Source: Eledone cirrhosa
Taxonomy: Eukaryota
Length of the DNA: 64,000 nt
Reading direction: 5' to 3'
Assembly (NCBI GenBank): GCA_964016885.1
Contig: OZ024757.1
Coordinates: forward strand, 12,090,001 to 12,154,000
The position numbers and the translations under genes were made by a program. Under the pieces are notes generated by a model that saw only the letters and a list, made by a program, of their open reading frames with translations, did no database searches and was not told the origin of the DNA. This document shows positions 9,893-64,000 of this stretch, in pieces. How positions within the stretch are numbered: the stretch's first letter is position 1; the number at the start of each line of letters is the position of its first letter.

Positions 9893-11107
9893 CTTGACTT
9901 TGCGAAAGCTTTCAATTCTGTGCCACACAAAAGACTTATGGCAAAACTCTCTGCAATGGGTGTGAAGGGTGATCTTTTTAACTGGTTGAAGTCCTTCATT
10001 CTCAGTCGAAGAGAGGTAGTCACAGTTCTGGGACAGCATTCCTCACCATGAGATGTCATCTGGTGTACTACAGGGATCTGTTCTTGGCCCCCTTTTGCTT
10101 GTGGCATATATTAATGACATAGATGCCAACTTAAAGAATGCCACAGTACTAAAGTACGCAGACGACATCAAGCTGAACCTTGAGATAAAAAGGACAGATC
10201 CTGAACACTATAGATCCTGCTTGCAGCCTGACCTGGACACAATGCAACAATGGATCTCAGACTGGCAACTCAAGCTAGCTGTGGTCAAGTGCACCACCAT
10301 GCATTTTGGGAGTAAAAACCCAGTGTTCACATACTCCCTCCACAGCAGTAATATCAAGAAGTCTTCTTTTGAACGTGGCCTGGGCATTACGGTCAGCAGC
10401 GATTTACATTGGACAAAGCACGTCTCTAAAATTATCAAGAGGGCTGAGGGTGTCTTAGCATCACTCAGCAAGACCTTTGTCAGCGGCCCTCCAGATATCT
10501 ATTTAAGGTTGTACATGGCTATGGTGCGGCCACACTTAGAATTTGCATCATCAGTCTCGAACCCCTATCTTGCTCAGAACATTGACTGCCTGGAAACTGT
10601 TCAGAGACGTGCAACCAAGCGAATACCCTCTATCAGGCATCTACCATACTCTGAACGCCTTGCTTCCCTGGGCATGGATACATTGAAGCTCCGACGCCTG
10701 GCAGCTGACTTGGTAAACACCCACAAAATTGTTAACCATCTTGCCAACAACAACCCTGAGTACCTTTTTGATTTCCATGTGTCTAACACATGTGGGCATG
10801 CCCACAAGGTCAGAAAACAGCACAGTTCCCTTGACTTTCGGAAACAGTTTTTTACACTCAGAGTTGTTGAAGCATGGAACAAACTACCTGGATCAGTTGT
10901 TAGCTGTCGAGACACTGCATCCTTTAAAACCTCCATGTTTCCCGAGATTCGCCAACACTACACCTAATGTTCCCCCTCCATACACATAGACACATGTATA
11001 TCATGACTCATACACTATTCACTTCCCTGACATTCGTGTATTATTCTATGTACTATACATGCACCTTTGACGAGTTGTAGTGCACCTGAGCACTGTACAC
11101 AATAATT

Positions 11108-12789: not shown

Positions 12790-13422
<633 letters not shown>

Positions 13423-15182: not shown

Positions 15183-15690
15183 ATGTCTGAATATAGCTGT
15201 GAGATTTGCAGGAAAACTTTCTCTTCAACACTGAAACTATCCTCACATGAGAAAATACACAGTAGAGAAAAATCCTTCCACTGTGAAATATGTGGGAAAT
15301 CTTTTACCGATAATTCTGCTCTTGTCATCCACATACGAAGTCACACTGGAGAAAAACTCTTCCACTGTGAAATATGTGGGAAATCTTTCACCCAGAAGTA
15401 CATTCTTGTAGAACACAAAAGAAAGCACACAGGAGAAAAACCTTATTCATGTGAAATATGTGGGAAATCTTTCACTAATACTTCTACTCTTGTCGTCCAC
15501 ATACGGAGTCACACTGGAGAAAAACCCTTCCACTGTGAAATATGTGAGAACATTTCATAAATAATTCTAATCTTGTCATCCCCGTACGGAGTCACACAGG
15601 TGAAAAACCCTTACATTGTGAAATATGTGGGAAATCTCTCAATCAGAATTCTTCAATGGTTGTTCACCTACGTAGTCAACACTTGCGGCA
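15183..15690 (+). pseudogene. C2H2 zinc-finger gene, 4 intact fingers then frameshift (copy A2)
   Basis: ORF 15183-15560; further finger remnants continue out of frame to ~15690, matching the C-terminus of A1. Confidence 0.8.
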
Positions 15691-19265: not shown

Positions 19266-20030
19266 ATGTCTGAATATAGCTGTGAGATTTGCAGGAAAAC
19301 TTTCCCTTCAAAACTGAATCTAACCTCACACGAGAAAATATACACAGGAGAAAAACCCTTCCAGTGTGAAATATGTGGGAAATCTTTCACTGATAATTCT
19401 AAACTTATCATCCACTTACAAAGTCATACTGGAGAAAAACCCTACCACTGTGAAATATGTGGAAATGTCTTTCTCAGAAGACCTATCTTGGAGTTCACAA
19501 AAGAACACACACTGGAGAAAAACCCTTCCTATGTGGAATTTGTGGAAAATCTTTTTCACATTGTGCTAATTTTGTAAAACACAAAGGAATACACGCAGGG
19601 GAAAAAACTTTTTCATGCGAAATATGTGGGAAATCTTTCTTTCAGAAGGTCCATCTTGGAGATCAGAAAAGAATGTGAAATATGTGGTAAATCTTTTTGT
19701 CGTGGTTCTAACCTTGTAGAACACAACAGAATACACACTGGACAAAAACCCTTCCACTGTAAAATATGTGGGGAATATTTTACTTATAATTCTAATCTTG
19801 TCATCCGCATGTTGAGTCATACTGGAGAAAAACCCTACCGTTGTGGGGAAAACCCTACCATATGTGGGAAATCTTTTTCATTGAGTGGTGACTTGAAAAG
19901 ACATATGACAATTCACACTGGAGAGAAACCCTTCCACTGTGAAACATGTGGCAAATATTTTGCCTTCAACTGTGTCTTGAAACGATATAGAACACATAAT
20001 GGAGAGAAACCTTATTCATGCCAAATATTC
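19266..20030 (+). pseudogene. C2H2 zinc-finger pseudogene, ~8-9 fingers (copy B2)
   Basis: Finger repeats split over ORFs 19266-19577, 19457-19678 and 19626-20123 by frameshifts. Confidence 0.85.
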
Positions 20031-20554
20031 AATCCTTCTCTTATAGATCTCAACATATATATATATGTCTGTGTGTATATATATACCTCGCCCAAGCGGA
20101 AGAAATATACTCCCATATATTGAAGATTACCACAATAACTAGGGAGCGGAGGACAATATATGCTGGACATTGCTACTGAGGATAAGATGACCTGATGAGC
20201 TGGTTCCTGTGGTGGATACCTAAACATTGTCAGACCCTAGTGGGATGACCAAGATTGACCTACATAGATCAGATGTCTCTGGATGTCCAGCTGGAGATTA
20301 ATGATCTCAGGAATGCTATGGAAGATCGTGACATCTAAAAAAGGAGAGTAGAATTATTCTTGGAAATCAACCGACTTAATAAATGATAATGATAATAATA
20401 TATATTAATGAACATTTATTATGGTGAAATATGTTGGAAATCATTCTCAGAGGTTTTGTACTGTAATCCTCAAATACTCTCTGGAGGAAGTTCCACTTCA
20501 TATTATTTGTCATTAAGGTTTCTTATAGATATACATTCTCATTTCATTGTTGAG

Positions 20555-21693: not shown

Positions 21694-23778
21694 TTTACGT
21701 CCGCTTTTCCCTGCTTGAAAGGGTGGGACGGGTCTTATTCAGCACAGCATCTCTCCACTCGTCACGGTCCCTCGTCATCTCCACCGTGAGCTTCAATGAT
21801 CTGAGGTCTGTTCTCACCCCCCCCCCCCCCATGTTTTTCGTGGTCTACCTCTACCATGTCTTCCTTCAACTGGCAATTCCTGGCACTTCTTCACCCATCG
21901 GTCATCCTCCATGCGCATCACATATCCATACCACATCAGTCTCCTCTCCCGTACACTACATTCTATCCCTCTCAGACACAGTTTCTCTCTCAACACATTT
22001 ATGCTGGGTCGTTCACGTACATTTACACTGCACATCCAACGGAGCATGCTTGCCTCATTTATCTCCAGCCGTCGCATATCTTCTGCAGTTGCTGCCCATG
22101 TCTCACTACCATGCAGCATCGCGCTCCTCACACAGGCATCATACAACCGGCCTTTCGTACGCAGGGAGAAACCCTTCTTCGTCAACAGAGGAAGCAGCTC
22201 CCTAAACTTCTTCCAAACCGTCCTTATTCTAGATACTATGGCCTCGGAACACCCTCCTCCCTTGCTAATCTGATCTCCTAGGTACCGGAAGCTATCCACC
22301 ACTTCTATAGCGCCCTCCTGCATTTGAAAAATGTGTCTATCAATGCGACTTCTACTGTCTAATTTCCCTGTACATCTACTGCATACATATTTCTCCCTAC
22401 CTGTTAGTTTGCCTGCTATCCCGCTACATATCTTGTGTACCCAGGATCTGCATTGTGTGCATTTTATAGCATTTATGCCAGTTCCTTTTCTGCATATCGA
22501 ACATGGCCATTTCCCTGACGGAATCAGGGTTTTGTCCTCTTTTCTACTCATCAACACTTTTGTCTTAACTAGATTTACTTTCAGTCCTCTTGCTTCTAAC
22601 TGCTATTTCCATAGCCAGAATTTATTCTCCAGCTCCTCTACTGATTCTGCTATAAGAACCAGATCGTCAGCATAGAGAAGTTCCCATGGACAGCCAGTCT
22701 TAAACTCCTCTGTTATGGCTTGGAGGACTATAATGAACAAGAGCGGGCTGAGGACCGAGCCCTGATGTACTCCTACTTGTATCTGGAATTCCTCACTAAA
22801 CTCCATTCCTACCCTGACTTTACTGAGAGTACCTCTGTACAAAGTTTGCACTGTCCTCACAAGCCATTCCTCAACACCTAGCTTCCTTAGGGACCACCAG
22901 ATGACAGATCGGGGTACCCTATCAAAGGCCTTCTCTAGGTCAACAAAGGCTAAGTCTAGTGGCTTATTCTTCTCTAAGAACCTCTCTTGCAATTGTCTCC
23001 CCAAGAAGAGGGCATCTGTTGTACTCTTCCCAGGCACAAAACCAAACTGCATCTCATCTAGTTCGACCCTTTCTCTAATTAGTTGTGCTAAAATCCTTTC
23101 TGCCACTTTCATAACCTGATCTATCAGTTTTATACCCCTATAATTGCTCCTCTCCAAAGCATCCCCTTTACCTTTGTAGCAATTTATGAGAATACTGCTG
23201 CACCAGTCTTTGGGTATGACACCACCAAATATAGCCTGATTGATGATGCGTGCAACCAGTTTAGTGCCTACGTCCCCTGATGCCTTCAGCATCTCAGCAA
23301 CTATTCCCGATGGACCGGCAGCCTTACCATTTTTCATTTCCCTAATCGCCTCTTGGACCCTATATTCGACAATCTCAATAGCTGGTCCCTCTGTCCAGGG
23401 TAATTTCTCTCTCTCCCATTTGTTCTCCACATTCATCAGTCTCTCATAGTGACATTTCCAGGCCTCCTTTTTTCTGATCATTCGTGACACTAAGTACACC
23501 GGCATCATCCCGGACACATTTATCTCCAACAACATCCTGATTCGCATTGACACACTGCCTTGCAATGTGGAACACCGCACGCCTCTGATCTTCCCGTCGC
23601 AGAACATTGGCAAGCCTCCTACTCTCTGCCTCCCTGCGTGCTAAGTACAACTGACGTCTAGCTTCTCTGTTAGTGGCTGTATATTCTTCCCTACTCCCAC
23701 CCTTTTTCCAAGCCTTCCATGCTAGTCTTTTGTCTCTAATAGCCTTATCTACTGTGCTGTTCCACCACCAGGTCACTC
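21656..23778 (-). mobile_element. RTE-clade LINE, 5'-truncated
   Basis: RT ORF 22603-23613 (AFVDLEKAFDRV, GVHQGS, LLYADD), Cys-rich WPCSIC segment, RGRPRKTW, (GAT)n tail. Confidence 0.95.
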
Positions 23779-23870: not shown

Positions 23871-25945
23871 TGCCGTGCACGTCCATTCCGACAAAACTGG
23901 CAACCTATATCAAGTGGAGCGCATCAACTACTACATAATGCTGTAAGTAAGGATTACCGTAAAACTAATCGGTGCGTCATCAATGAAATCAACGATGCTG
24001 GGTTTAAAATCACATCTGATCTCAACATCCTGGACCGGACCGAACCTCTGGACCCTATTTCTCCCCACTTTACCCTGTAGGATCACAAATCCAATTTTCC
24101 GAACAACCCCTCTATTCGGCTTATTAACCCTACGAAGTTCGATTTAGGTAGACTTAGTAAGACGATTCATGATAGAATTATACCTGAAATTAGAAGTTTG
24201 GCCCCTCTCGCACTGTGGAACAATTCCTTCGCGGTGATTGATTGCTTCAACGGCATATGTAACAAGGAACATTGCCGTTTTATCCAATTAGACATCAACA
24301 ATTACTACTCCTCCATCACTTTACCACTTCTCCTTAGAGCTATCAATTTCGCTAAAACACTCACAGTGGTTAAGGATTTCGAAGTTGATGTCATCCTCAA
24401 TGCCCGAAAGTCGGTGATTAATTTCGACGACTCTATTTGGATTAAAAAATCCAATAGTACCCCATTCGACGTGAGTATGGGCGCCAGTGATTCTGCGGAG
24501 GTTACTGATCTTATCGGCCTTTTCCTTCTTTTCTCCATCAAGGACGAATTCCCCAACGCGGGCGGTGGTTTGTACCGTGACGATGGTCTTTTGACCATGA
24601 CTAAGTGCGGACCTCGTGCTTGCGACAGGTTCAGAAAAGAACTCACAGCCTTCTTTAAAGGCTTCAACCTCTCTATACAGGTTGAGGCCAATCTCTCGGT
24701 CGTTAATTACCTCGACGTTACCCTCAACTTATTGAATGGGTTGTATTACCCGTATAGAAAGCCGAATGATACGCTTAATTACATAAGTAAGCATTCCAAC
24801 CATCCTGCCAGCATAACCAAGAACCTGGTAAGAAACGTTTCGTTGAGGCTTTCCCGTCTTTCCACCAACGAACATATTTTCAACGACCATTCCACTTATT
24901 ACAATGAAGCTCTTGCTCGAAGTGGATTTGTCGATAAGGTAGCATATACAGAGTACGAATATAGACCTAGAAGAAATAGATCCCGTTGCATTTGTTGGTA
25001 TAACCCACCATATAATATGGAGGTGGCCACACCGTTAGCTAAGATCTTTCTTTCCCTTATTACGAAGCATTTTCCCCCTACACATAAATATAGTAAAAAC
25101 TTTTTATTGAAATACTATTAAAATGTCTTACTCCACGACTCCTAACCTTGCACATAACATGACAGCTTCAAATTTAGCTAAACTACCTAGCCGTAGGAAC
25201 ACGTGCAACCCTGTAGTTAGAACTAACAGTAATTGTAGGAATCGGGTTGATTGCCCCCTATCCGGGAAATGCCTCTCTAGTAACATTGTCTACAAATGTA
25301 AGGTTGTAACACCCACGTCCCGTAGGGCCTACATAAGGTTAACTGCCAATAGATTCAAGCAGCGTCTTTACATGCATACCCATTCTTTTCGTTAAGAAGG
25401 AATATGATGTCACTTTCAGCTTATATCTGGAGTCTAAAAGACCAATATAAGTTACACTGGGAGATCCTAGATAGGGCTAGATCGTATAACGGAAATAAAA
25501 GACCATGTGACCTCTGCGCCGCTGCGGCCCTGGAAATACTCTACGCCACAGACCACATCTTAAACAAAAAATCTGAGGCAATTTCGGGTTGTAAACATAA
25601 ATTGCACAAAACTTTCCTGTATTACAGCTCCACGTTATACCCTAACGGATAGCACGATCGATACGTGGATATTTTACGTCTCGATGTGGGAGCCAGCGAA
25701 CGTTTCCACGAACCAAAGTATCGTCTTCCTGTCTTCCACCGGTTGCAACGTTTTTTGAAATATCCAGTTCTGCGTTTACAGATTGACTTTGTTAGTTTCA
25801 GAAGATCCCGTTAAGGGTGAAAGCAGCGATTCTTTGCTTAAACTTTAATCTGTTATTTTAATAAATATTTGCTCTACGGTTCTTATATATTTGATATATA
25901 TTTATCCTTATCGAACCCTCTTTGGATTTTAGTCTTCAAATTTAT
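23871..25945 (+). mobile_element. Penelope-like element 1 (YRDD type), 5'-truncated, frameshifted RT + GIY-YIG + 3' pLTR
   Basis: HSDKTGNLY, QLDINNYYSSI, FDVSMGA, GLYRDDGL, NYLDVTL, WYNPPY, CRNRVDCPLSGKC..IVYKC..AYI, CDLC; ends in (TA)n. Confidence 0.92.
25794..25844 (+). ncRNA. Type I hammerhead-like motif with CAGAAGA core
   Basis: AGTTT-CAGAAGA-tCCCgttaaGGGt-GAAA-GCA..TGC-TT-AAACT; second copy at 32912-32962(-). Confidence 0.55.
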
Positions 25946-33170: not shown

Positions 33171-34936
33171 TTTTATTTAGGAAACCGAAGGAAGCATGGT
33201 AAGGAACCAGGTGGACCATAACGCAGGAATAGCACTCGACACTTTGAGTAGTAGAGGGGTAATAGGAAAAGGTTCAGGACCCCGACGGCAGAGCTCAAGC
33301 CCTTTTGACGGCTATTTCTAGTCCAGAAATAGCCTTAGAAACGGCTTGAGCTCTGCCGTCGGGGTCCTGAACCTTTTCCTATATATATATATAACGAAGG
33401 TAATGTGGTAAGGAACCAGGTGGACCATAACGCACCAAAGTACTCAATACTTAGGGTAGTAGAGTGGGTAATAGGAACAAGTAAGACCCCGACGGCTGAG
33501 CTCAAGCCGTTTCGACGGCTAATTCTGGACTGAATGAAAATTTATTCTGGTATTTAAATAGCCGAGCTTATCAAGGGGTAATTCCATATATGGTCAAAGA
33601 GACAATCACCAGGATTGGTCACATCACAAGTTAGTAGTAAATCGGTGATGGCAAATTGGTGGGGGAAGGGGTAGCTAAACCTGCCGGTAGGAGAAAAAAA
33701 GGGAGAGGGGGTGGAGTAGACCCATTCATGCGTTGGTAGTGCCGGCTACAGCTGGGCGTGAGGTCAAATGGATACTGGGGAGGGGGAGGGGGAGGAATTC
33801 GAAACGGTAAGTAACACAATGAAGGGTATTAATATAAACAGTAGTGATAGAGAGAAAAAAAAAAAAATAAAAAATAAGCAAAGTCTGGTTACTAAGACTG
33901 AAGTCTATCGCTATTGCTAGGCTAAAGAAATACATAAATAAATAAATAAACAAATACGTGAATAAAAGAATAGTTAAATAAATTTAAAAATATATATAAT
34001 GAAGAATAAAATACTAAAGAGACTGCCACGAAATAATAAAGGTTTCTACCCCAATCACAGGGCCAGCAACCACCCAGTGCAAGAAAGTAAACTAGTACGA
34101 GAATATAATTTAGGGTCCCGCAAAAAAATACTAGTGCTAACTCTAAGGGTACCGCCACGAAACGAAAAGTCTTATACACGCTACATGAAAGATCGTACAA
34201 AGTAAAAGTAAAGAACGGAAAATTAATACAGAACCCCCCCCCCCCCCCCCCCCCAAACAAAAGGGAAAAAGAAGAAAGAAATACTGGATAAACGAGAAAT
34301 TAAAGCAAAGATGCCACTAAGAAATATAGAAGGCACAGAAAAAAGGGACAGCGGTCGGAGAAGGGGGCAAGTATCCGAAGTCTAACACCTCTGCTATAAA
34401 AAGCGGAGTCAGCCAAATCTATCATAGAAATGGGGAAGGGGGTGGGGTGTTGAAGCTACAAGGGACCGAGGGGCTACCTCGGGTGGGCGAGAAAAAGACG
34501 ACGACAAAGAAAAGGAACTGGAGTAGAAGGACTAGGGAGGGATTGGGGGAAGAAGGAAATATAGAGGAAGCGATAAAAGAATGTAAAAGAAGATTTTACT
34601 ACTAACTTGTGATGTGACCAATCCTGGTGATTGTCTCTTTGACCATATATGGAATTACCCCTTGATAAGCTCAGCTATTTAAATACCAGAATAAATTTTT
34701 AATTCAGTCCAGAATTAGCCGTCGAAACGGCTTGAGCTCAGCCATCGGGGTCTTACTTGTTCCTATTACCCACTCTACTACCCTAATTATTGAGTACTTT
34801 GGTGCGTTATGGTCCACCTGGTTCCTTACCACATTTCCTTCGTTATCTAGCTCCTATCCCCGTAGTAGAGCACTTTCCGACCCTACCACGCCGTATCCAG
34901 ACTTTTCCGCTAAGCTCAATTTCTTTCACCCGCACC

Positions 34937-37098
34937 ATGCGAAAACACAACATCGACTTCTCTACCAAGAACATCCCAATCCCACCGAAAATACTTAACC
35001 TTCGGATGCTCACGCAAAAAATCGATCTATTTGCGAAAAGACTTAGATGGAGAACTTTTTTCTACGACAGATTTTGCGACAATCAGGACATCGGTACCAA
35101 GGAGAGATTCGGATTTATTACCTACAAATCTCCCCCCCCCCCCCAGAACCCTTTGCTCTCACCCTTCGAGAATGACCTCTTCCAACTGGTCAAGAACCTC
35201 AAATTCAAACCCAGACACAACCGATTCCTACAAAAACTCCGTAGCAACTTAACAGAGTATGATAACACCAATGACATCATGGTGCATTCGGATAAAACTG
35301 GGAACCTATACTTTGTCAAACCCGACAGATACCACACACTGATCAGGAGCAGCCTAAACTCCACCTATAAAAAGGCTAACCACTCATGCATCGAGGACAT
35401 TAATCGAGATGGACAACAAATTACCTCCAGCCTCGGGGTCGCTGACCGCACCGAACCCCTAGACCCACGGACACCATACTTCACACTGAAGGACCACAAA
35501 TCCGATTTCGACCTTAAAACATCTATCAGGCTTATAAACCCAATGAAGTCCGGCATAGGGAGAATCAGCAAAAAAATCCTAGACCGCGTGATACCAAAAG
35601 TCAAGCAACACGCCCGACTTAGCCTATGGATCAACACCCAGGAAGTTATCTCATGGTTCAGCAATATGGAGGATAAACGAGACACTAAATTTATCCAGTT
35701 CGACATAGAGAGCTACTATGCTTCAATCACCTTACCGCTACTTACTGCTGCCTTGGACTTCGCCGAAGCACTTGTTCCCATCACCGACCAGGAAAGAAAA
35801 ATCATCCTCCACGCCAGGAAGACAGTCTTACTCTTTGACAACTCCAAATGAATAAAAAGAGCTCCCGACTCACCCTTCGACGTCAGCATGGGCGCCACAG
35901 ATTCGGCGGAGGTCACAAATCTTATAGGATTATTCCTTATAGCCAAACTCACCGATATGTTTCCTGCTTTCGGTGGTGGATTGTACCGTGATGATGGGCT
36001 CCTTACCCTTAAAGGGTACAACCCCAGTAGTACAGATCGGGTCCGTAAACATTAATCAGCTTCTTCCGCCACTGGGGATTTAAAATAACCCTACAAACGT
36101 CCCTGACCCGAGTTAATTTCCTGGACGTTACCCTTGATCTCAATAATGACCTGTACTACCCATACAGGAAACCCAATGACAACCTGCACTACATCCACCG
36201 CCGATCTAACCATCCTAGGAACATCACCAACAACCTGGTCAAAAACATCTCCCTCCGCATATCCCGTTTGTCAGCTAATGAGAAGATATTCGATTAACAT
36301 GCGCCTTACGACAACCAGGCCCTCAAGCGGAGTGGTTTCCGGGAGGAAATATCCTACTGTCCAGCTCCCATTAGCGGAACCAGCAGGCGACACCGCCGCT
36401 CACGCAATGTAACATGGTTCAATCCTCCCCACAACGCCGAGGTGACAACTCCCATCGGGAAAATTTTCTTTAGGCTCATTGAAAAACACTTCCCACCACA
36501 ACACCGCTACCACAACATAATTAACAAAAATACCATCAAACTCTCTTACAGCACTACACCTAACTTCGCACAAAACATCGTCTCCTCCAACAACAAAAAA
36601 CTCAACCCCCATGGAAGAAACAACCTAAATAGCTGTGGAGAGCCGACCAGGAGGTGCAATTGTCCTGTAAGATCCAGTTGCCCCCTCGACAACAGATGCA
36701 GAGACCGTAATGTGATCTACCAGTGCAACGTGAGCACGGACACCTCCAACAAAGCTTATATAGGATTAACCGCATGTGACTTCAAGACCCGGCTATACCA
36801 ACACAGACATACCTCCCGAAACCCGGCCCGGCGTCACGCCACTACACTTTCGGGCCACATATGGGACCTCAAGGACAACAACATCAACTATGATCTCACT
36901 TAGAAATTACTGTCCAGAGCCAACTCTTACACGGGAGGACGCCGTCCGTGCAATTTATGCTCGGAGGAAAATTTACAAATGGTGTTTTCGACGGACCAAC
37001 TCCTAAACAAGAAAGATGAACTGGTTACTGCATGTAAACACCGATTACGTAGGAATTACCTCGCCATCAAACCCCATAATGACCCGGGGGAGGGGTAG
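34937..37098 (+). pseudogene. PLE2 RT-GIY-YIG ORF, disrupted
   Basis: Stops at ~35849 (Trp to TGA), ~36295 and ~36901 (Trp to TAG), and a frameshift at ~36050. Confidence 0.88.
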
Positions 37099-40884: not shown

Positions 40885-42483
40885 CATATAATTACGCATA
40901 TACATACATATATATACACACACAAAATACATAGCCATACAATTATACACATACAAATACGTACATATCACAAACACGCACAAACAAATACAAACACACA
41001 CACATATATATATATATCTATATATATATATATATAGATATAGATATATATATGTGTGTGTAAAACTCAATCTTAGATAATTCATATGAACCTTATTTAA
41101 CTCCAAAATATAGATATTCATATATATATAGTTATGTAATAAACAACATAAGGCAATTATTCCATTTACCAGTGGTTTCTTAAAAGCAAAAAATGTTGCC
41201 TTCAATCATCAGAATGAAAAAATCCTGGTCTATCTATATATATATATATACACACATATATATACATATATATATACACGTACACATACATACACATACA
41301 TTTTGGTATGTGAAGGGTAAGGCCAAAAATAGGGGGGGAAAGGAGGGGGAAAAGGAGGGGGATAAATGACATAGGAAAAGGTTAAATATAAGGGGAGATA
41401 AGGGGAAAAGAGAATACAAGAGTACAGAACCTGGATTCAGCAGGTAAAAAAACCGTAGTAGAAGTAAGGAGCAGAGAAGGAGTTCAAGGCGGTTGATTTA
41501 TCATAGGAATGTCAATCCAGTTACAGATCAGATGTGATTTCAGATGAGCACAACATCTGAAGATCTCGGTCTTTGAGGTCAGGCAAGCGGAAGTGGCTCT
41601 CAAGTTTAACAAAATCCTATATTTTTCTGTGGTACACAAAGAACAATTCTTTGTGCCCCTTTGGTACTCCCTCGAATGGTCTGAGTACGGGATGTTATTA
41701 TCCTTGAATTCCACACCTTACTTGCGAGGGCCGTTGTTGTTCGTTTATCGGAGTGCTTAAAAGAAGCGACATGTGAGTAAAACCTGGTTTTAAACCTGTC
41801 CTGGGTCATGCCGACTTATTGCTCACTCCTGGCTGGCTGGTTGTTGATTAACAGTGTTATTTTAGCCTCATAAACAACAGATTTGGTGTTACATTTGCCC
41901 TGCAATGGGCATTCATCCGGCTTCCTGCAACTGCATCCTGGATTTGTTCTCGTATGATTTGAACTATTAATCTTGGACTTCATAGATGGGCAACAAGAGT
42001 AACTGATCTTAACTACGTTCCTATTAAATATCTTATAATATCTATGATTAGGAGGAAAATGTTTATCTAAGAGTTCAAGGAATTTCCTTCCTATATTAGA
42101 TTTGACAGTTAGAGAGAAGGAGTGTGTGAAGCAAATAATTTTCCTTTTCCTGTTATTGTGGTTAGTTTTAAGGGGGGGCTGGGGGAGGGCTGGAGGGTAA
42201 ATAAAAAAAAATTCTGTAAAACCGCTGTTGATTGTGTGTATGTATGTATGTATGGCTATGTATGTGTATGTGTATGCATATATATATATATATATATATT
42301 TATATTTCTATATAAATGTGTGTATATATGTGCGTGTGGTTGTATATATGTATGTGGTTGTATGGATATGTTGATACTTATGTATGTATGTATGTATGTG
42401 TATATGTATGTGTATGTGTGTGTATATATACACATATATATGTGTATATATGTGTGTGTGTGTGTATGAGTGTATGTGTGTAT

Positions 42484-44932: not shown

Positions 44933-45768
44933 GAAAAAGTGAGTCCTTCATCAGTGACCCTCCAACCGTCCCAGGCATTTCATCGCTTTAAGGGCCATAT
45001 ACCTCAGGTTGGTGCGAACAAACGGCTAAAAAAAAGTCGTTGGGACACGTAAATAAGAGAACGTTAGGGTGAACAAACAAAAGGACTCACTTTTTCATAT
45101 GTATCCCATTTGCAACGCCGCAGCTCCATTATTATCATATTTACACATATATTTTTTCCTCTGCTGCCACCCGTCTGTTTCTTTCCTTGTATCTTTACCC
45201 TTTCTAGCAGTCTCTCTCTCTTTTAGCCTCTTCCTCAACCTTCACTCACTCATACCCTGTCACTGCCTCTCCTCCTCTCCTCTTTCTTCCCGCTTGACCT
45301 GTCCGATTTCTTTTCTCGCGCACTCTTGGCCAAGCCGGTATGAAATTTTTTTTCTCTCTCTCTCTCGTCTGCGACTTCACAGAACTTATGTTTACCGAAT
45401 TCGCAGACCAGACCCCTTCTTCTTCCCCCCGTTAGACCTGTGCGAAATTCCTTCCTTGCTCACATTTCAACCAGGTTTGATGGTCTTTATTCTCTAGTTC
45501 ACGATTTTATCGAGTTTATATTCATAGAAATCTGGGACTTGTCTCTTTCTTCTCACTTTCTGTTGCTTAAACCATCTTGTTTGTTCACCCTAACGTTCTC
45601 TTTATTTACGTGTCCCAACGACTTTTTGTAGCCGTTGTTCGCACCAACCTGAGGTATATGGCCCTTAAAGCGATGAAATGCCTGGGACGGTTGGAGGGTC
45701 ACTGATGAAGGACTCACTTTTTCATATGTATCCCATTTGCAACGCTGCAGCTCCATTATTATCATATT

Positions 45769-45772
<4 letters not shown>
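44931..45772. mobile_element. Non-coding element with pLTR-like inverted plus direct termini
   Basis: 44931-45080 is the reverse complement of ~45577-45726; 45081-45145 repeats directly at 45708-45772; flanked by (TA)n. Confidence 0.6.
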
Positions 45773-45809
<37 letters not shown>

Positions 45810-45816
45810 CTCAAGA

Positions 45817-48800
45817 ATGTACATTACTCAAGAATGTAATAAGCACTTTAACAGAAAATTAAAGTGGCTTAAACAGGCAAAGCTAAATCGGGATACTATA
45901 GAGTATACCAATAGATATCCCGACAAAATTGACGGTATCAACATGGCCGACACCTCATTATCTGAAGAGTTCAACAATGAAAATACCAACATTTATGGAA
46001 ACACGAAAATAGATAGTAATGAAATGTCTGTGTTACGTTTGCCACCCAAATTTGCGACATTCAAGAAGGTAAATATGATTAGTTGTCTGTCAGAAATAGA
46101 AAAATCATTTACGAAACTACGCTGGAGCATCAAAAACAAAAACAAAAGCAACAATATACGCACACACATATACAACACACATCCCAACAACAACAGACAC
46201 ACAGACACAAACAATAACAACAACAATAGCAACATACCCAGATACAATACCAACAATAGCAACATACCCAGATACAACAGACACGCAGACACAAACAACA
46301 ATAACAACACACACGGAGACAACAATAACAACAACACACACATCAACAACAACAACAACAGCAACATACCCAGATACAACAACAACAGACACGCAAACAC
46401 AAACAACAATAACAACACACACAACAACGATAACACACACACACACGGAGACAACAACACACATCAACAACAACACACATCAACAACAACAACACACACA
46501 CATTCAATGCCTCTCACCACCACTACAATCTTAACAAACACACAGACACAGAAAACAAGTAATGACAGTAGCACAGAAATCAGAGAAATAAGAGAAAGTA
46601 ATAGGATTAAAAGGAGTAGGGAGACTAAGGACAAAGAGAATAACCAAGACGAACACACAGACACACAAAATAGGGTAGATAACAACATTGAGCCAGTGGA
46701 AAGAGACAGGAGTAATTATGAGAGACATAGAAACAACCATGAAGCTGAGGCTGCTGCTGTTGGTGGAAATAGAAACAACACAACTAACAATAGCGCAAGT
46801 ACACATAAAGCAGCAGCCTGGAACTCTCCGTTTTATAACCACTCCGATAAATCATTCGACCTACGACGAGTCCACGCCACGACTTTGCCATTTAACAAAC
46901 GCACGCAGTTGCCGTCGCAGGTCGATGAACAAACAGAAGCACAATTTAGTATAGCTAAATCCGAACTTAGAAATATTATAGAACAGTATAGCAAGAAGCA
47001 TAATAGAATAGAGGCCCAGCAACTGGGAGAAGAATCTGCAAATGGCTTGCGTAAGCTCATGCAGCGCTCGCGTAATGGAGAGATAGCATGCTTTCCAACA
47101 GACAAGTCTGGCAGAATGTCGGTTGACAGTCTGCCAAACTACATCCAGGCAATGCAACCCCACATCACTAACACAAGAGAGGTAACACCACAGGAGCATG
47201 AGGACAGAGAAAAAACCCTCAATGCCCATATGGTGATGTGGACAAATATAATGCAGCCCAACAAAAGGACTGCCAACAACTTCCAGGCCTGGAACAATGA
47301 CGTGCCGGCGTTGTATGGGCTTCGAAAAGACCATAAAACGGGCTGGGACCCTGTCGCGGGACCACCAACACGGCCAGTCTGTGGGGCTAACATTGCTAGT
47401 AACTACAGACTGTCCTACTTCCTCTCCCTGATCATACGCCCCATCATTGAGATGTCCCCAGATGTGTGTGACAGCACGGAGGACCTCCTCAGCAGAATCG
47501 ACGCGGGTAACCGATCTGGGGACCTAACAAACTGCATAATAGGCAGTATGGATGTTGTGTCCCTGTATCCATCCATTGACGTGGATTTTGCTGTGGAGAA
47601 ATGCGTCGAAATGATCAGCGAGAGCAAGGTTGAGTTCCGTGGGATTGATACCAGTGAGCTGGGACTTCTACTTAAGCTTACCCATAGTAATAGTTACCTA
47701 GACACTTATGACCTTAGCAACCTGTGCCCTACAAGACCAGCAAGAGGCAGACCACCTACCATTACCTCAATGGCCAAGAAAACCCACACAGATAGATGGA
47801 ACGGGTGGACCAGAGCCATACGGACACCCGAAAACCACGATGAACTGAAGAAAATGATTGCACATGCGGTAGGGGCCAGCATAAAATTAACCCTTAAGGA
47901 ACATATGTTCAAATTTAATGGTAAAACATATGCCCAAGAGGAAGGAGCAGCCATTGGTGTTAGCATTGCAGGCGACATAGCTAACTTGTTCATGGTATGG
48001 TGGGACAGTAGACTTAAACAAAAACTTAAAGAACAATTAGAAGACAGATTAACCCTGATAATGTACTCCCGCTACGTAGATGATATAAACATCGTAGTTA
48101 AGACACCCCCACTAAAGAACAGTCAGGAACCTGAGAAAAACACAATGGAAAGCATCCAGCAAATAGCAAACTCCATCCACCAGAGCATTAGAGTTACTAT
48201 AGACTACCCAAGTAGACACCCCAACCATCGATTACCTGTACTAGACACAGAGCTCTGGTTAGATACTATTAACAACCAAAAACAAATCCTCCATTCCCAT
48301 TATGCCAAACCCATGACTTCCAAACATCTGATCCACCGAAACTCGGCCATTTCGGACCATACCAAAATCAACATACTGATTGCGGATTTGATACGGGTGA
48401 TGAGAAATGTGTCCCGCATGTGCAACCCCGAAGAACTAGAGAGACACATACAACACTTCATCCACCGTATGCAGTTCTCTGGCTACAATCAGAGAGATAG
48501 AATCAGAGTGTATAAAGGAGCCAGAACCAAATGGGAAAAAATGGTAAATAATGACATAAATGGGACCTGCCCCTTGTATAGGAGCAAATTTTGGAATAGA
48601 ATAGAAAGAACTAAGAACAAGGCCAATAGAATAAACTCATGGTATGATAGCAATAAATACCAGAGTGTAATGTTCATCAATACAACCCCTAGAGGTGAAC
48701 TAGCCTACAAATTTAGAAGGGCCCTAAAGAAACATAATCTCAATATTAAGATAGTAGAAAGACCTGGTACCTCCGTAAAAACACTTATTAGCAAGACATA

Positions 48801-49203
48801 CCCGTTCCAAAGACCCTCATGTATAGATAAGAAATGTATAACCTGTAAAATAAGCCCCCATATTAACTGTAAAACTAGAAATGTAGTATATAGCATAAGA
48901 TGTACTGAGGGACAATGTAGAAACAAAAATATAGTGTACATAGGTGAGACAGCTCGTAGTATAGGGGAACGAATAAATGAACACTGGCGAGACCTCCAAG
49001 ATAGTAAAGAATCATCTGTGCTCTACCAACATGCTAAGATAGAACACAGGGGTAAATTAGAGAGCATAGAAATAAAAATAGAATCCACACACAAGAAAGA
49101 CGCAATGTTTAGGCAAATTACAGAGGCAGTAAGCATAAAAGAATTAAAACCAAAATTAAATAGAAAATATGAGTGGAACAGCAACATCACAACTTACAAT
49201 TAA
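45817..49203 (+). CDS. Penelope-like retroelement polyprotein (Asn-rich region, RT, Cys linker, GIY-YIG); open but 5'-truncated (PLE4)
   Basis: 1128 aa; TDKSGR, GSMDVVSLYPSI, QEEGAAIG, RYVDD, LPVLD, CxxxxCxxC linker, VVYSIRC..YIGET..R..EH, E..LNRK. Confidence 0.93.
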   Translation: MYITQECNKHFNRKLKWLKQAKLNRDTIEYTNRYPDKIDGINMADTSLSEEFNNENTNIYGNTKIDSNEMSVLRLPPKFATFKKVNMISCLSEIEKSFTKLRWSIKNKNKSNNIRTHIYNTHPNNNRHTDTNNNNNNSNIPRYNTNNSNIPRYNRHADTNNNNNTHGDNNNNNTHINNNNNSNIPRYNNNRHANTNNNNNTHNNDNTHTHGDNNTHQQQHTSTTTTHTHSMPLTTTTILTNTQTQKTSNDSSTEIREIRESNRIKRSRETKDKENNQDEHTDTQNRVDNNIEPVERDRSNYERHRNNHEAEAAAVGGNRNNTTNNSASTHKAAAWNSPFYNHSDKSFDLRRVHATTLPFNKRTQLPSQVDEQTEAQFSIAKSELRNIIEQYSKKHNRIEAQQLGEESANGLRKLMQRSRNGEIACFPTDKSGRMSVDSLPNYIQAMQPHITNTREVTPQEHEDREKTLNAHMVMWTNIMQPNKRTANNFQAWNNDVPALYGLRKDHKTGWDPVAGPPTRPVCGANIASNYRLSYFLSLIIRPIIEMSPDVCDSTEDLLSRIDAGNRSGDLTNCIIGSMDVVSLYPSIDVDFAVEKCVEMISESKVEFRGIDTSELGLLLKLTHSNSYLDTYDLSNLCPTRPARGRPPTITSMAKKTHTDRWNGWTRAIRTPENHDELKKMIAHAVGASIKLTLKEHMFKFNGKTYAQEEGAAIGVSIAGDIANLFMVWWDSRLKQKLKEQLEDRLTLIMYSRYVDDINIVVKTPPLKNSQEPEKNTMESIQQIANSIHQSIRVTIDYPSRHPNHRLPVLDTELWLDTINNQKQILHSHYAKPMTSKHLIHRNSAISDHTKINILIADLIRVMRNVSRMCNPEELERHIQHFIHRMQFSGYNQRDRIRVYKGARTKWEKMVNNDINGTCPLYRSKFWNRIERTKNKANRINSWYDSNKYQSVMFINTTPRGELAYKFRRALKKHNLNIKIVERPGTSVKTLISKTYPFQRPSCIDKKCITCKISPHINCKTRNVVYSIRCTEGQCRNKNIVYIGETARSIGERINEHWRDLQDSKESSVLYQHAKIEHRGKLESIEIKIESTHKKDAMFRQITEAVSIKELKPKLNRKYEWNSNITTYN

Positions 49204-49507
49204 GGACAAAATGAAAACACACACACACATATATAAACAACTTACAATTGAAAACACACACAAAATGAAAACACACACAAGACAAAATGAAAACACACAC
49301 ACACATAGAACAAACAACCAACCAACAATAAATAAATAAATAAACAAACAAATATAAATATAAAAATAGAAAAATAGAAAAATGAACACAAACACACACA
49401 GACACCCGGATGTGGCGCATGCGCAAACTGAGCACGCAACCCACACACAAACAAAATGGCGTAGGATAGAAGAAAGGAAAGGCACAGAAACGAAGAAAGA
49501 AATCCCC

Positions 49508-49552
49508 AGTCACTGAAGAGGTCACAGAGTGTGTGACGAAAGAACTATGACT
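49508..49552 (+). ncRNA. Type I minimal hammerhead with extra base after A9 (PLE4 pLTR)
   Basis: AGTCA-CTGAAGA-g-GTCACA..TGTGAC-GAAAG-aa-CTA-TGACT. Confidence 0.75.
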
Positions 49553-49703
49553 ATATATATATAAACAACTATCTGGTTGTGGAACCAACCAACCAACCAG
49601 AAATTTATAAATTTGTAAATTTATAAATATATATTAAATTAAATTGAAGTGAAAGCAACTGGTGCGTGTGTTTCTTATTGGCAACATGACCCTCCCAAAG
49701 TAT

Positions 49704-49770
<67 letters not shown>

Positions 49771-49773
49771 TAC

Positions 49774-49841
<68 letters not shown>

Positions 49842-49947
49842 TATATAAGGATTAAAATACTGGAACGTGTTGGAGTTAAACACCCTCTTCGTATTATAGA
49901 AATGACAGTAAAAGGTATGGCTCAATGTAATTAAACAGAGCCGAAGA

Positions 49948-54746
<4,799 letters not shown>

Positions 54747-57562: not shown

Positions 57563-60500
57563 TAGACACAGAAGCGAGAAGCGAGAACCAACCAAACAGT
57601 GAGTGTGTTCTGTTATTAATTCTGGCAATATTACACAAATATGACCCTCCCCAAGTATAACAATATTTGTTTCGACACACGATTTCATATAAAAAACCTC
57701 GCAAAACTAATTCATCGCCGCTATGGCATTAGCTTGTGCCAAGCTGAAAGGTTATTGAAAGACACTGTTTTCTGTTATATAAAAACTACAATAACAACAG
57801 AACAAATACGCTTCTTACAACACTGTGTTTCCTCCAAAACATACACAACAAACATATCAAAACAAGTAAATAATTTATTATTGAACAAAACACAAGCCGA
57901 ACGACTAAAACACACAATAACAGTTAATATGAAAAGAACAACATACACAAAAGTCAACGAACTTTACAGACAGAAACGCATTAACGGTAAGGAAATCCGA
58001 AATCTCATCACACCAAACGAGAGGGATAACTTCATGAGCGTCATCCGACGTGAAACGAAATACGCTCGAAACGAATGCAATAGGCATTTCAATAAGAAAT
58101 TAGAATGGATGAATAAGAAAAAACTACAAGAAAGGAAAATCGAATATTCTCGAAAATACCCAGAAAACATCGACAATATCCGTATGACTGATGTAAGACT
58201 ACCGGAAGAATTTACTAATGACCACACAGTAAATATTTATGGGAACACTTTAATCAGTGAACAAGAACAACAAATCCTGCGGCTACCACCAAAATTTGCC
58301 ATCTACAAAAAGATTAACCCTATGGAGTGCAAAACGGAGCTAGAAAAGTGTTTCACGAAAATACGTTGGAATGCAAAGGTAAACAACAACAACAACAACA
58401 ATAATAACGGTAGTAGTAATATAAACAATAACTCTGAGTATAGAAATAACAGTAATAACAATAACAATAGCAGGAAAGTGAGAAATAGTGATAATGGTAA
58501 TAATACTAGCGATATACAGAACAACAACAACCACAATAATAATAATAATAGAAACATTAACCACAGACACAGCAGCAGCGACCACAGTAGTAATAACGGT
58601 AACAATACGAACAACAACAACAATAACCACAGTGGTAATAATGGAAATAGTACATGTAGCAACATCAATGATAGACACAACAAAAACAAGAAACATAATA
58701 AAAGTAACAACCACAATGGTAGAGATAACAGTAACAACAACAACAATAACGGTGAAGTAAACAACAATACATCTAGCAATCATAACAATAATAATAATGC
58801 TAATGATAGAAACAACAACAACCACCACGATAACAATAATAGCAACACACACAACTATGACGATAGATATAATGACAACCCCTTAGAGAAACTATTTTTC
58901 AATCCATCTGACAAAACATATAAGATGGGTAATATCTATCCTACGAGGTTACCCTTTAATAAAAGAGTTTGCATACCACAACAAATAGATGACGAGACAG
59001 AGGCACAGTTCACCATAGCTAGAAATAAGATTAGACAAATAGTAGACAGGTATACTAAGAGACAGAGCAGACCAGAGGCCCAACAACTTGGGAGGAAACC
59101 TGTAGAGGCTTGGTTAGCCTCAAGCAGCGCACAAGGGATGGTGAGGTAGTATGTCTACCCACGGATAAGTCTGGTAGGATGTCAATAGATAGCATGCCGA
59201 ACTACATCAAGGCTATGCAACCCCACATCACCAACACGAGCGAAATTGCACAACAAACACACGATGGGAGAGAGAAAATTCTCAACGCTCACATGATGAT
59301 GTGGACTGACATCCTAAAGCCAAGCAGACGCACTGCCAACAACTTCCAGGCGTCTAACAATGGCATACCACCCTTGTATGGGCTCCGCCAAGACCACAAG
59401 ACAGTCGACGACCCGACAACAGGACCACCAACAAGACCCGTATGCGGAGCTAATATAGCTAGCAACTACAGGATCTCCTACTTCCTCTCAATGGTTATAC
59501 GCCCCATAATCAAGATGTCCCCAGATGTATGTGACAGTACAGAGGACCTCCTCAGCAGAATCAGTGAGTGCAACAAAAACAGGAACCTATCCAACTGCAT
59601 AATAGGCAGCATGGATGTGGTGTCACTGTACCCATCCATTAACATTGATTTTGCTGTGAAAAGATGTGTGGAGATGATCATTGAGAGTGAGGTGGAGTTC
59701 TGCGACGTCGATACAGACGAACTGGGCCTCCTACTTAGACTTACCTACGACACTGACTACCTAGACAGCCACGACCTTAGATGTTTCTGCCCTAGTAGAC
59801 CTATAAGATGTAGACCCCCCACCATAACCTCTATGGCAAAAAAGACTCCCATGGGAAGGTGGATTGGGTGGACCAAAGCTATACGGACCCCCCAAACAAT
59901 GATCAGGTAAGAAAAATGGTCGCACATGCAATAGGGGCTAGTATCAAAACTACCCTAAAGGGCCACATATTTAAGTTCAACGAGAAGATCTACACCCAAA
60001 ATGAGGGAGCAGCCATCGGCGTCAGCATAGCTGGTGATGTTGCCAACCTTTTCATGGTATGGTGGGAAAGGAGACTTAAAGATCTCCTTAATGAGAGCTC
60101 CATAGACCACATCATGTACTCTCGTTATGTAGACGATATCAATATAGTTATAAGAACACCCCCACTAGAGAGCACTAACAAGTTTGATTTAGAACGTAGC
60201 ACGATGGAAAACATCCAGCAGATAGCTAATTCCATACACCAGAGTATAACTGTAACTATCGACTTCCTTTCCAAACACCCTAACAGTAGACTACCTGTAT
60301 TAGACACAGAACTCTGGATTAACACTATAGACGAAAGAGCCCAAATTCTCCACTCACACTATTCTAAACCCATGGCCTCCAAATACCTGATACTCAAAAA
60401 CTCAGCAATGTCCAGTAGTGCTAAGTTTAATATTCTGATAGCAGATTTGGTACGAGTGATGAAGAATGTGTCCCGCATGTGCGACCCAACAGAAATGGAA

Positions 60501-61736
60501 AGACACATCCAACACTTCATCAACCGCATGCAGTTCTCTGGCTACAACCAAAGAGACAGAGTCAGAGTATACGAAGGAGCCATGGAGAAGTATAAGACCC
60601 TCATAGAACTGGACATGAAAGGAATTTGCCCATTATACAGGAGAAAATCATGGAATAGTTTAGATAGGGCTAGACATAAGATAGGGAAGGCCACCTCATG
60701 GTACGACAACGAGAGATACCAGAGTGTCATGTTTGTGGACGCTACCCCTGGAGGGAAATTAGCTAACCAGTGTAGAAGGGCCCTGAGAAAAACCCACTTA
60801 AAAATAAAGGTGGTAGAAAAGCCAGGAACCACCATAAAATCTCTGATCAGCAAAACCTACCCTTTTAAGAAAACCCACTGTACCAATAGGAAATGTATCA
60901 TATGTAAGGTGAACCCCCGGATAAACTGTAAAACTAGAAACGTAGTCTATAGCATAGGATGTACAGAGGGTACCTGCAGAAACATGACAACAACATACAT
61001 AGGTGAGACAGCTCGTAGAATAGGTGAAAGGATAGACCAACACTGGGGGGAACTAAAAGGACGAAAAAACGGGTCAGTACTATACGAACATGCTAGACAA
61101 CAACATGACGGTAACATAGACAACATAGAAATTAGAATAATATCTAAACATAGAAATGACCCAGCAGATAGGCAAATCAGAGAGGCCAGTGAAATAGAAA
61201 TTAGAAGACCAAGGCTAAACAGAAAGAATGAATGGAATAACAACAACACCCAAACAAACAACACTGACCTAAGAGAAGTATAAATAAGTAAATAAAATAA
61301 AATAAATAAATAAATACATACACAAGCACAATAACAACAAGCACATAAACACACACTGGCCACCCATCACACAGCAAACAAAACACTATACACACACGCA
61401 AACGCATGCGCAAAGAAGACAAAATAAAATAAACAAACAAGCAAATAAATAAATAAATATATAGACAGACTAAATAAAAATGGCGTAGACATACAATACA
61501 ACAGGAGGAAAATATAACACCACTGACGATGTTGCAGATGTGCAACGAAAGATTTATGATAAACTATATATATGTGTTTGTGTCTATATTGTATTTGTAT
61601 TATTTTTGACCGTCGGTCAGTCAATGGCAACATTGAGGACCGAAAGCGAGAAGCGAGAACCAACCAAACAGTGAGTATGTTCTGTTATTAATTCTGGCAA
61701 TATTACACAAATATGACCCACCCCAAGTATAACAAT
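57563..61736 (+). mobile_element. Penelope-like element 6, full-length, two frameshifts (relative of PLE4)
   Basis: ORF pieces 57641-59149, 59110-59910 and 59859-61283 are collinear with PLE4; ~95 bp direct terminal repeat (57571-57665 and 61644-61736); (TA)n on both sides. Confidence 0.93.
61519..61560 (+). ncRNA. Type I minimal hammerhead with extra base after A9 (PLE6 pLTR)
   Basis: CA-CTGACGA-t-GTTGCA-gatg-TGCAAC-GAAAG-at-TTA-TG. Confidence 0.7.
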
Positions 61737-61738
61737 AT

Positions 61739-61784
<46 letters not shown>

Positions 61785-61956: not shown

Positions 61957-62024
<68 letters not shown>

Positions 62025-62028
<4 letters not shown>

Positions 62029-64000
62029 TAGAAAGATCGAGTATCGAAAAATCGGCGCACGAGTTCACGATAAACGAAATTCGATATGAGCGGCAGAGGG
62101 CTCAATAATTCAGATGAATCAGAGCTATAACTATCGTTAAAATACCGTCACATATAGAACAAGTCTACAATCAACCATACGATTTAAAATCGATAGAGGA
62201 AGATTCGGGCCAAACAGATAAAAAATATCAATAAAACAATACGTCAATAATTTAAATGAATGTAAAATCATACCCGGACCCACTAGACAGGTGTTAAATC
62301 TAGCTTCATGGGTTTCTGTAAATCCTTAGACTGTACTCTATCAGCTCACATATAAATATAAAAGCCTACTAGAGTAAGCGGAACGGAGGTTTACTTTCTC
62401 AACGAGTTTTTTCCTGGCGGCAGAGGAGCCAACTACCAGTGAAAAACGCACATGGCATTAGACAAGGGAGATGACCCCTATATCCGCGAAAACAATTCGA
62501 GTGAATGTGGAAATACACATATCGAATTAGAGTGCTCAATAGACATGTTAAAATAAAACAAAAGCTATTCATCACTCAATAGAATCGACAAAAAATGAGC
62601 AATAAAATTAACTGGTGGATAGCTATGTCCAGAGCTAAATATATTAGAAAGATCGAGTATCGAAAAATCGGCGCACGAGTTCACGATAAACGAAATTCGA
62701 TATGAGCGGCAGAGGGCTCAATAATTCAGATGAATCAGAGCTATAACTATCGTTAAAATACCGTCACATATAGAACAAGTCTACAATCAACCATACGATT
62801 TAAAATCGATAGAGGAAGATTCGGGCCAAACAGATAAAAAATATCAATAAAACAATACGTCAATAATTTAAATGAATGTAAAATCATACCCGGACCCACT
62901 AGACAGGTGTTAAATCTAGCTTCATGGGTTTCTGTAAATCCTTAGACTGTACTCTATCAGCTCACATATAAATATAAAAGCCTACTAGAGTAAGCGGAAC
63001 GGAGGTTTACTTTCTCAACGAGTTTTTTCCTGGCGGCAGAGGAGCCAACTACCAGTGAAAAACGCACATGGCATTAGACAAGGGAGATGACCCCTATATC
63101 CGCGAAAACAATTCGAGTGAATGTGGAAATACACATATCGAATTAGAGTGCTCAATAGACATGTTAAAATAAAGCAAAAGCTATTCATCACTCAATAGAA
63201 TCGACAAAAAATGAGCAATAAAATTAACTGGTGGATAGCTATGTCCAGAGCTAAATATATTAGAAAGATCGAGTATCGAAAAATCGGCGCACGAGTTCAC
63301 GATAAACGAAATTCGATATGAGCGGCAGAGGGCTCAATAATTCAGATGAATCAGAGCTATAACTATCGTTAAAATACCGTCACATATAGAACAAGTCTAC
63401 AATCAACCATACGATTTAAAATCGATAGAGGAAGATTCGGGCCAAACAGATAAAAGATATCAATAAAACAATACGTCAATAATTTAAATGAATGTAAAAT
63501 CATACCCGGACCCACTAGACAGGTGTTAAATCTAGCTTCATGGGTTTCTGTAAATCCTTAGACTGTACTCTATCAGCTCACATATAAATATAAAAGCCTA
63601 CTAGAGTAAGCGGAACGGAGGTTTACTTTCTCAACGAGTTTTTTCCTGGCGGCAGAGGAGCCAACTACCAGTGAAAAACGCACATGGCATTAGACAAGGG
63701 AGATGACCCCTATATCCGCGAAAACAATTCGAGTGAATGTGGAAATACACATATCGAATTAGAGTGCTCAATAGACATGTTAAAATAAAACAAAAGCTAT
63801 TCATCACTCAATAGAATCGACAAAAAATGAGCAATAAAATTAACTGGTGGATAGCTATGTCCAGAGCTAAATATATTAGAAAGATCGAGTATCGAAAAAT
63901 CGGCGCACGAGTTCACGATAAACGAAATTCGATATGAGCGGCAGAGGGCTCAATAATTCAGATGAATCAGAGCTATAACTATCGTTAAAATACCGTCACA
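62025..64000. repeat. 616-bp tandem repeat, at least 3.2 near-identical units, runs off the window
   Basis: Units start at 62025, 62641, 63257 and 63873; only isolated substitutions seen. Confidence 0.97.

Follow-up and report, generated by a model that had tools for sequence, protein, structure and literature searches.

Telomerase has its nearest eukaryotic relatives in the reverse transcriptases (RTs) of Penelope-like elements (PLEs). In telomerase reverse transcriptase (TERT), an insertion-in-fingers domain (IFD) lies between RT motifs A and B′ in the arrangement IFDa-TRAP-IFDc; TRAP is described as a largely extended beta sheet, it pairs with the TEN domain, and its basic residues grip primer or template (PMC10055720). 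Canonical PLEs are without an IFD, IFD-like regions occur sporadically in Coprina, and in Naiad and Chlamys, whose endonuclease (EN) is N-terminal, additional sequence separates RT3(A) from RT4(B); what the IFD does in PLEs is described there as unknown (PMC8557442). In two rotifer families of the Penelope/Poseidon type with a C-terminal EN, Pen3_Av and Pen5a_Av of Adineta vaga, RT motifs 3 and 4 are separated by a short insert rich in Cys (PMC3846280). Eight PLE clades were listed as of July 2026 (bioRxiv 10.64898/2026.07.22.740005).

Here we describe PLE4, an element from Eledone cirrhosa. On the evidence below we lean slightly towards reading it as a young and abundant member of a deep, apparently unnamed lineage of C-terminal GIY-YIG PLEs, likely allied to Nematis, with a conserved, predicted helical insert of 70 residues that is likely independent of TRAP.

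The window analysed is a stretch of 64,000 nucleotides (GCA_964016885.1, contig OZ024757.1), and all positions are counted from its first letter. PLE4 lies on the forward strand at 45819–49711 and is a 5′-truncated copy of a 4286-bp element whose full open reading frame (ORF) has 1267 aa, of which about 139 N-terminal codons are missing. The 4286-bp unit occurs as tandem copies at other places in the genome, and PLE4 is 99.7% identical over 3896 bp to the tandem unit of one such locus (L055). Its 5′ junction is a (TA)n microsatellite (45764–45807) followed by a 17-bp duplication (45806–45838). An inverted pair at 44933–45760, with a CTGATGA hammerhead-like core near 45703, adjoins this microsatellite and is probably the end of another PLE.

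The ORF holds, in order, an N-terminal region, LPPKF and RW motifs, an Asn-rich segment, a DKS motif, the RT, the thumb, a Cx4CxxC linker and a GIY-YIG endonuclease with CCHH. In PLE4 the Asn/Thr/His-rich, low-complexity segment is at 46130–46800, between the RW motif and DKS (47101–47109); the latter is DKG in canonical PLEs and DKS in 86 of the 87 homologs that cover it. Motif C (YVDD) follows at 48073–48084, and the short linker and C-terminal endonuclease, with its CCHH and R/H/E/N residues, occupy 48820–49200, as compared by eye with Fig. S2 and S7 of Craig et al. 2021 (PMC8557442). Downstream, the pLTR carries a type I hammerhead motif (49508–49552) with a helix I of 5 bp, a helix II of 6 bp and a minimal helix III, and the copy closes with the first 26 nt of the next ORF (49686–49711), a proximal end point that runs into (TA)n at 49708–49847. 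The PLE4 family has the single ORF, TERT-like RT and C-terminal GIY-YIG of C-terminal EN+ PLEs, as well as the pLTR, the tandem and inverted copies, the tail and the type I hammerhead of PLEs. A second family of the same lineage, PLE6 (57565–61740, forward strand), is near full length, with two frameshifts, ends in (TA)n and shares 71% DNA identity with PLE4. PLE4 and PLE6 carry different Asn-rich in-frame segments at one and the same place, from RW to DKS (58370–58870 in PLE6), and the length varies from copy to copy, with open frames of 1278–1329 aa.

Within a single open frame (45709–49203), the catalytic Asp of motif A (SMDVVSLYP, 47551–47553; invariant in the homolog alignment) and the Gln of motif B′ (QxxG(G/A)AIG, AQEEGAAIG in PLE4, 47935–47958, followed by the lineage's xWWD motif) are 128 codons apart, and the Gly at 47956 is 135 codons from the Asp, as the preliminary description had counted. 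Its comparison with a 63-aa span in PLE1, a Hydra-clade element by its motifs (PMC8557442, Fig. S7), caught a real shortfall but mixed two measures: the 63 is counted from the Asp up to the MG motif's Gly, so that the fair pair is 135 against 63 and the like-for-like excess of PLE4 about 72 aa. The extra segment is indeed not of low complexity (3.93 bits over 68 aa), and it is also present in PLE6, where a 1-nt deletion near 59889 changes the reading frame at the insert's end. Over its 68 codons the two families differ at codon positions 1, 2 and 3 in the ratio 12/15/36, a pattern that, from sequence comparison, points to purifying selection.

The search of the 90% library returned 234 homologs, and all 120 of those listed have the insert: the Asp–Gln span is 126–135 in 116, and the other four end before motif A yet show the insert, so it is not there by chance. 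Control spans are 49–69 in 215 of the 216 PLE RTs measured. Among Neptune, EN-minus and Poseidon controls, 118 of 120 could be measured (53–69), and among Nematis-like controls 98 of 120, with 96 at 55–60, one at 49 and one at 27, which is a regex mis-hit. The long insert in the PLE4 RT is thus confirmed as real. Other sources of the extra length were considered and ruled out: an assembly artefact or local duplication, by the A–B′ region being 100% identical in 150 of 150 scored matches in the species' own genome, among 10,340 candidates; a low-complexity expansion, by the composition of the insert; and an intron, by the open frame and the selection pattern.

The lineage reaches well beyond the octopus genome. 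Among the homologs listed, the closest named one is from Octopus vulgaris (67%); the named hosts also include the sea cucumber Holothuria leucospilota and the jellyfish Sanderia malayensis, alongside many metagenome contigs, which added divergent sublineages whose loops are Lys-rich or remodelled. In the best 150 representatives from the 50% library the insert is present in all 81 that were measurable, 79 with spans of 117–159 and two regex mis-hits whose sequence holds the insert. A profile of the insert alone (insert-only HMM) matched 100 of 145 new representatives and none of 240 control PLE proteins. Shared marks of the lineage are DKS, LRKDHK, QxxGG(A/P)IG and xWWD. Of the 120 listed homologs, 106 could be aligned over the endonuclease region, 112–114 have the linker Cys residues and 108 the His, the rest being mostly gaps. 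None of 193 pattern matches in viral contigs was confirmed, and in the ESM Atlas only generic or unnamed PLE clusters were matched. One member, P0473 (1517 aa), has a linker and GIY-YIG at about residues 30–190, ahead of the N-terminal region and RT, which reflects read-through across a tandem junction or else a permuted order of domains like that of Naiad.

Among the described clades, Hydra (PMC8557442) shares with the lineage a C-terminal EN, RW and DK(S/T) motifs, KDHK in RT1, (TA)n insertion and aquatic invertebrate hosts, but has a CxCx5C linker, a short A–B′ span and no CCHH, where the lineage has Cx4CxxC, a long span and CCHH. Neptune has a long Cys linker, whereas that of the lineage is short, and Penelope/Poseidon elements have none. 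The A. vaga families Pen3_Av and Pen5a_Av resemble it in being C-terminal EN PLEs with a motif 3–4 insert and Asn-rich in-frame inserts; however, their insert is short and Cys-rich, against 70 aa with one conserved Cys, and the Asn-rich segment upstream of DKS in the PLE4 lineage is at another site (PMC3846280). Naiads likewise target (TA)n and reach very high copy numbers, although Naiad and Chlamys have an N-terminal EN and lack a canonical hammerhead, while the PLE4 lineage has a C-terminal EN and a hammerhead; the Naiad insert is about 20 aa and one Chlamys span reaches about 119, against an insert of about 70 aa here, with no likeness by eye (PMC8557442). One Naiad motif searched in the species' own genome gave 0 matches.

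The closest likeness is to Nematis, and it raises the question of whether the lineage is its own clade at all. It could instead be a fast-evolving Nematis subclade that gained the insert, perhaps deposited as an unclassified 'Penelope-n', and its description would then be new without its deserving a rank of its own. Like named Nematis elements (PMC8557442), its members have a short Cx2-5CxxC linker, a GIY-YIG with CCHH and a similar xKIVE(R/K)PG segment before the linker, and the lineage attaches beside the Nematis-like rows in the 36- and 34-row trees. These trees were built on 380 columns without the insert columns, their reference clades being labelled by motif likeness to the figures of PMC8557442 and not by named Repbase entries; Athena, Naiad, Chlamys, TERT, D. 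virilis Penelope and named Coprina are absent from them, and P0484 and P0222 were dropped from the 63-row set at trimming. The lineage forms one clade with 98 SH-aLRT in the quick tree of 63 rows, with 100/100 support in 36 rows, and again with 100/100 under a mixture model in 34 rows without Hydra. In the best trees it falls outside the Nematis-like, Neptune and Poseidon groups. Neptune also comes out as paraphyletic with EN-minus elements, in line with the published result (PMC8557442).

The AU test rejects the lineage together with Neptune and EN-minus elements (p 0.021), inside Neptune (p 0.0003) and with Poseidon (p 0.021, two reference rows only), and does not reject it as sister of the Nematis-like RTs (p 0.23), nested within them (p 0.067 and 0.30) or with three EN-minus RTs (p 0.11). 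The values of 0.067–0.30 are those that suit a Nematis subclade. Against it stand the stem of 0.9–1.9 changes per site, longer than those of the Nematis-like, Neptune and Poseidon groups, and the monophyly of the Nematis-like rows (97/95 in the 36-row tree), whose support fell, however, to 71/71 under the mixture model, a drop that counts against a separate clade. The motifs speak the same way: named Nematis elements in the figures of PMC8557442 have GLAMG and an A–B′ span of about 60, and the Nematis-like rows have DKG, whereas the lineage has DKS, GG(A/P)IG, a span of about 128, LRKDHK and xWWD. We consider a mere Nematis subclade unlikely. By its sequences and in these trees the lineage appears distinct and nearest to Nematis.

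The proposal in the preliminary description that the lineage is undescribed survives in part. It matches none of the named clades in Fig. S1, S2 and the available part of S7 of PMC8557442, and the AU test rejects neither a separate clade nor a derived Nematis branch. Four lineage motifs gave 0 matches in the supplement of that paper, whose protein rows may be incomplete, and the published literature that we found, which does not extend to Repbase and Dfam, holds no description of it. Members could have been deposited under generic names. It is probably an unnamed PLE clade worth naming.

In its own genome the PLE4 family is young and very abundant. A 32-nt pattern over the pLTR/ORF start has 23,153 exact genome matches, against 0 for the control. 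Among the first 30 of these on contig C1, which are not a random sample, 15 copies end at +26, 14 at about +86 and one reads through. Both kinds of end finish in ATAT and run without exception into (TA)n, and each of the 10 close inverted pairs combines a +26 end with a +86 end. These ends are the PLE tail, which has been tied to two internal start sites of reverse transcription (PMC11167929); no stable RNA fold was seen over the end points. The PLE4 hammerhead shares a short helix III with the type I hammerheads described from metazoans (PMC4209133). None of 500 shuffles matches its pattern, and helices I and II are present in the MFE fold; the fold z-score is only −1.5, and an Rfam scan did not report the motif. 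The hammerhead of PLE6 looks decayed, and the pattern occurs in 6 of the 69 metagenome loci that were scanned.

The insert itself (47623–47835; residues 185–255 of the model) is, in the alignment, as conserved as the RT core: its mean top-residue frequency is 0.505, against 0.49–0.55 in most other RT parts, and E196, G198, L199, R222, G226, P229, R242 and W246 are each present in 92–98% of 108 rows. Its parts follow in order as an acidic linker, a helix ELGL(Y)L, a short helix, a basic CPxRxxxGxxPxxT loop, short helices and RWxxW, with a mean net charge of −4.2 in the first half and +4.0 in the loop. In divergent sublineages the CPxR/GxxP loop is swapped for Lys-rich or shorter ones, leaving only the helices and the final Trp as universal. 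The RT was modelled over 523 aa from 108 sequences (pLDDT 94.7; 86–98 across the insert block), with predicted insert helices at 194–204 and 207–212, then the loop, then helices at 231–235 and 239–242. The model places the insert between a helix after motif A (47581–47622, residues 171–184) and a helix before the B′ hairpin (47836–47898, residues 256–276), at the TERT IFDa and IFDc positions, respectively. A Lys-rich expansion inside the insert was observed in three loci (L108, L107 and L110), with some 90 extra aa in L108, and two others (L132 and L123) have a further long insertion ahead of motif A.

From these features and from PLE biochemistry (PMC11167929) a possible mechanism can be drawn. 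The nuclease would nick the (TA)n target, and reverse transcription would start inside a read-through RNA at +26 or +86, so that, with two internal start sites, one of the arms in every inverted pair would carry a 60-nt tail. The insert's hydrophobic helix and RWxxW may pack on the two bracing helices, while the basic Cys-Pro-Arg-Gly-Pro loop may grip primer or template beside the duplex, and the resulting clamp would help to hold a duplex primed on few A–T pairs. By analogy, we put it at about an even chance that the insert is such a helix packed on bracing helices plus a nucleic-acid clamp, alike to TRAP in place and job and not in ancestry. What points to a nucleic-acid role is charge, conservation and position only, and the replacement of the loop in divergent sublineages counts against a clamp. 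Since Hydra and Naiad elements target (TA)n without the insert (PMC8557442), it is not needed for that targeting.

The insert might alternatively be a structural brace or a protein–protein surface, facing the element's own N-terminal domain, its nuclease or a dimer partner, with no nucleic-acid contact. The most universal residues, the ELGL helix, G, P and W, are hydrophobic or structural, as a brace would have them. Covariation over 258 rows (Neff 188) is dominated by noise, and the top insert-core signals, towards the xWWD helix, are weak and within that noise (z 3.3–4.2); for what they are worth, they lean the same way. A brace with no such contact sits poorly with the near-invariance of Arg222 and Arg242 and with the loop's net charge of +4 in the main sublineages, and we think it improbable.

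How the clamp-like reading relates to telomerase depends on the make-up of the insert. The preliminary description had proposed a C-terminal GIY-YIG PLE with an IFD-like insert, and of this the lineage is retained, with an insert in the position of the IFD that is long, conserved and folded. A structural likeness to the IFD is not supported. No strand of three or more residues is predicted in the insert, either in the RT model or in a separate 146-aa model of the fingers, both confident, whereas TRAP is largely beta sheet, so the likeness is one of position and size only. The insert does sit between the equivalents of IFDa and IFDc, as TRAP sits between its bracing helices, at similar length and with basic residues that are candidate primer/template contacts (PMC10055720). 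Counted by hand from Fig. S1 of PMC8557442, A–B′ spans are 115 in human and 149 in Tetrahymena TERT, 81–84 in two Naiads, 102–119 in two Chlamys and 58–60 in Penelope, Nematis, Athena and Coprina examples. The top structural matches of the whole RT are TERTs (Z 16.5, rmsd 3.7, 275 aligned), which is the fold expected of any PLE. For the 146-aa fingers model, Foldseek and a wide VIA-align search gave nothing at E≤0.001 and nothing at Z≥5 among 48,161 chains (best Z 4.0), with no TERT in the 50 matches listed, a result that does not establish a different or new fold; sequence searches of the PDB gave no TERT and only weak RT, GIY-YIG and spurious repeat-protein matches. On these models an independent origin is likely the better reading, and the link to the telomerase IFD is at best convergent. 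True homology between the insert and the TERT IFD/TRAP, by retention from the PLE–TERT ancestor and remodelling, seems to us highly improbable: it would fit the shared site between two bracing helices, the similar span (128 against 115 in human TERT, by hand count) and the TERT matches of the whole RT, but not the helical make-up, and any PLE would give those matches, while Craig et al. argue against treating the IFD as a trait derived in common (PMC8557442).

A differently built insert at the IFD site suggests that modules were gained there repeatedly. Because this lineage has one of its own, the IFD becomes weaker as evidence of kinship between PLEs and TERT, and the lineage is a natural case for comparing the work that inserts at that site do. 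A Pfam scan of the PLE4 ORF found 0 families; escaping Pfam in this way, the lineage is probably under-annotated, despite one family having more than 20,000 pLTR copies in its own genome. With intact, near-identical ORFs and two end points mapped, the element lends itself readily to testing in vitro. What we describe is a widespread, apparently undescribed variant of C-terminal-EN PLEs, for whose insert we infer a function. A bolder statement may also hold, namely that this is a ninth major PLE clade in at least three marine animal phyla, with many lineages below 50% identity, that went unnoticed because its insert defeats RT profiles and that has a convergent, helical, TRAP-like clamp for duplexes primed on few microsatellite base pairs; we offer it tentatively and regard it as somewhat doubtful.

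PLE4 and PLE6 stand among many other elements. Hydra-clade copies lie in the window at 24081–25121, 34787–36903, 41816–42307 (reverse strand) and 51924–52658, and the family of the first has 32,617 first-look candidates in the genome, of which 150 were scored at 98–100% identity. Around a Hydra remnant are long inverted arms of 97–99% identity (49948–50377 with 54205–54634, and 50535–51151 with 53442–54058), in which Rfam type I hammerheads were found at 49994–50038 (reverse) and 54544–54588 (forward), with 29.1 bits. Neptune-type families, at least four of them, are present at other loci of the same genome (L043–L054), together with one Nematis-like family (L052), which brings the PLE groups that share it to four. 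Metagenome contigs L127–L138 encode PLE RTs with no nuclease in the ORFs examined and A–B′ spans of 54–69, three of which (L128, L135 and L136) group near Neptune. A PLE6-type ORF start, (TA)n and a Hydra ORF are joined in one frame at another locus (L142), and thus the elements pile into the same microsatellites. A 616-bp tandem repeat with copies 97% identical begins at the (TA)n after PLE6 (62003–64000). The window further holds AT microsatellites, RTE/CR1-type LINE fragments (8137–9063, 10020–10967 and 21814–23640) and C2H2 zinc-finger arrays with an 84-bp period (2881–3462, 12875–13355, 15258–15641 and 19578–20123).
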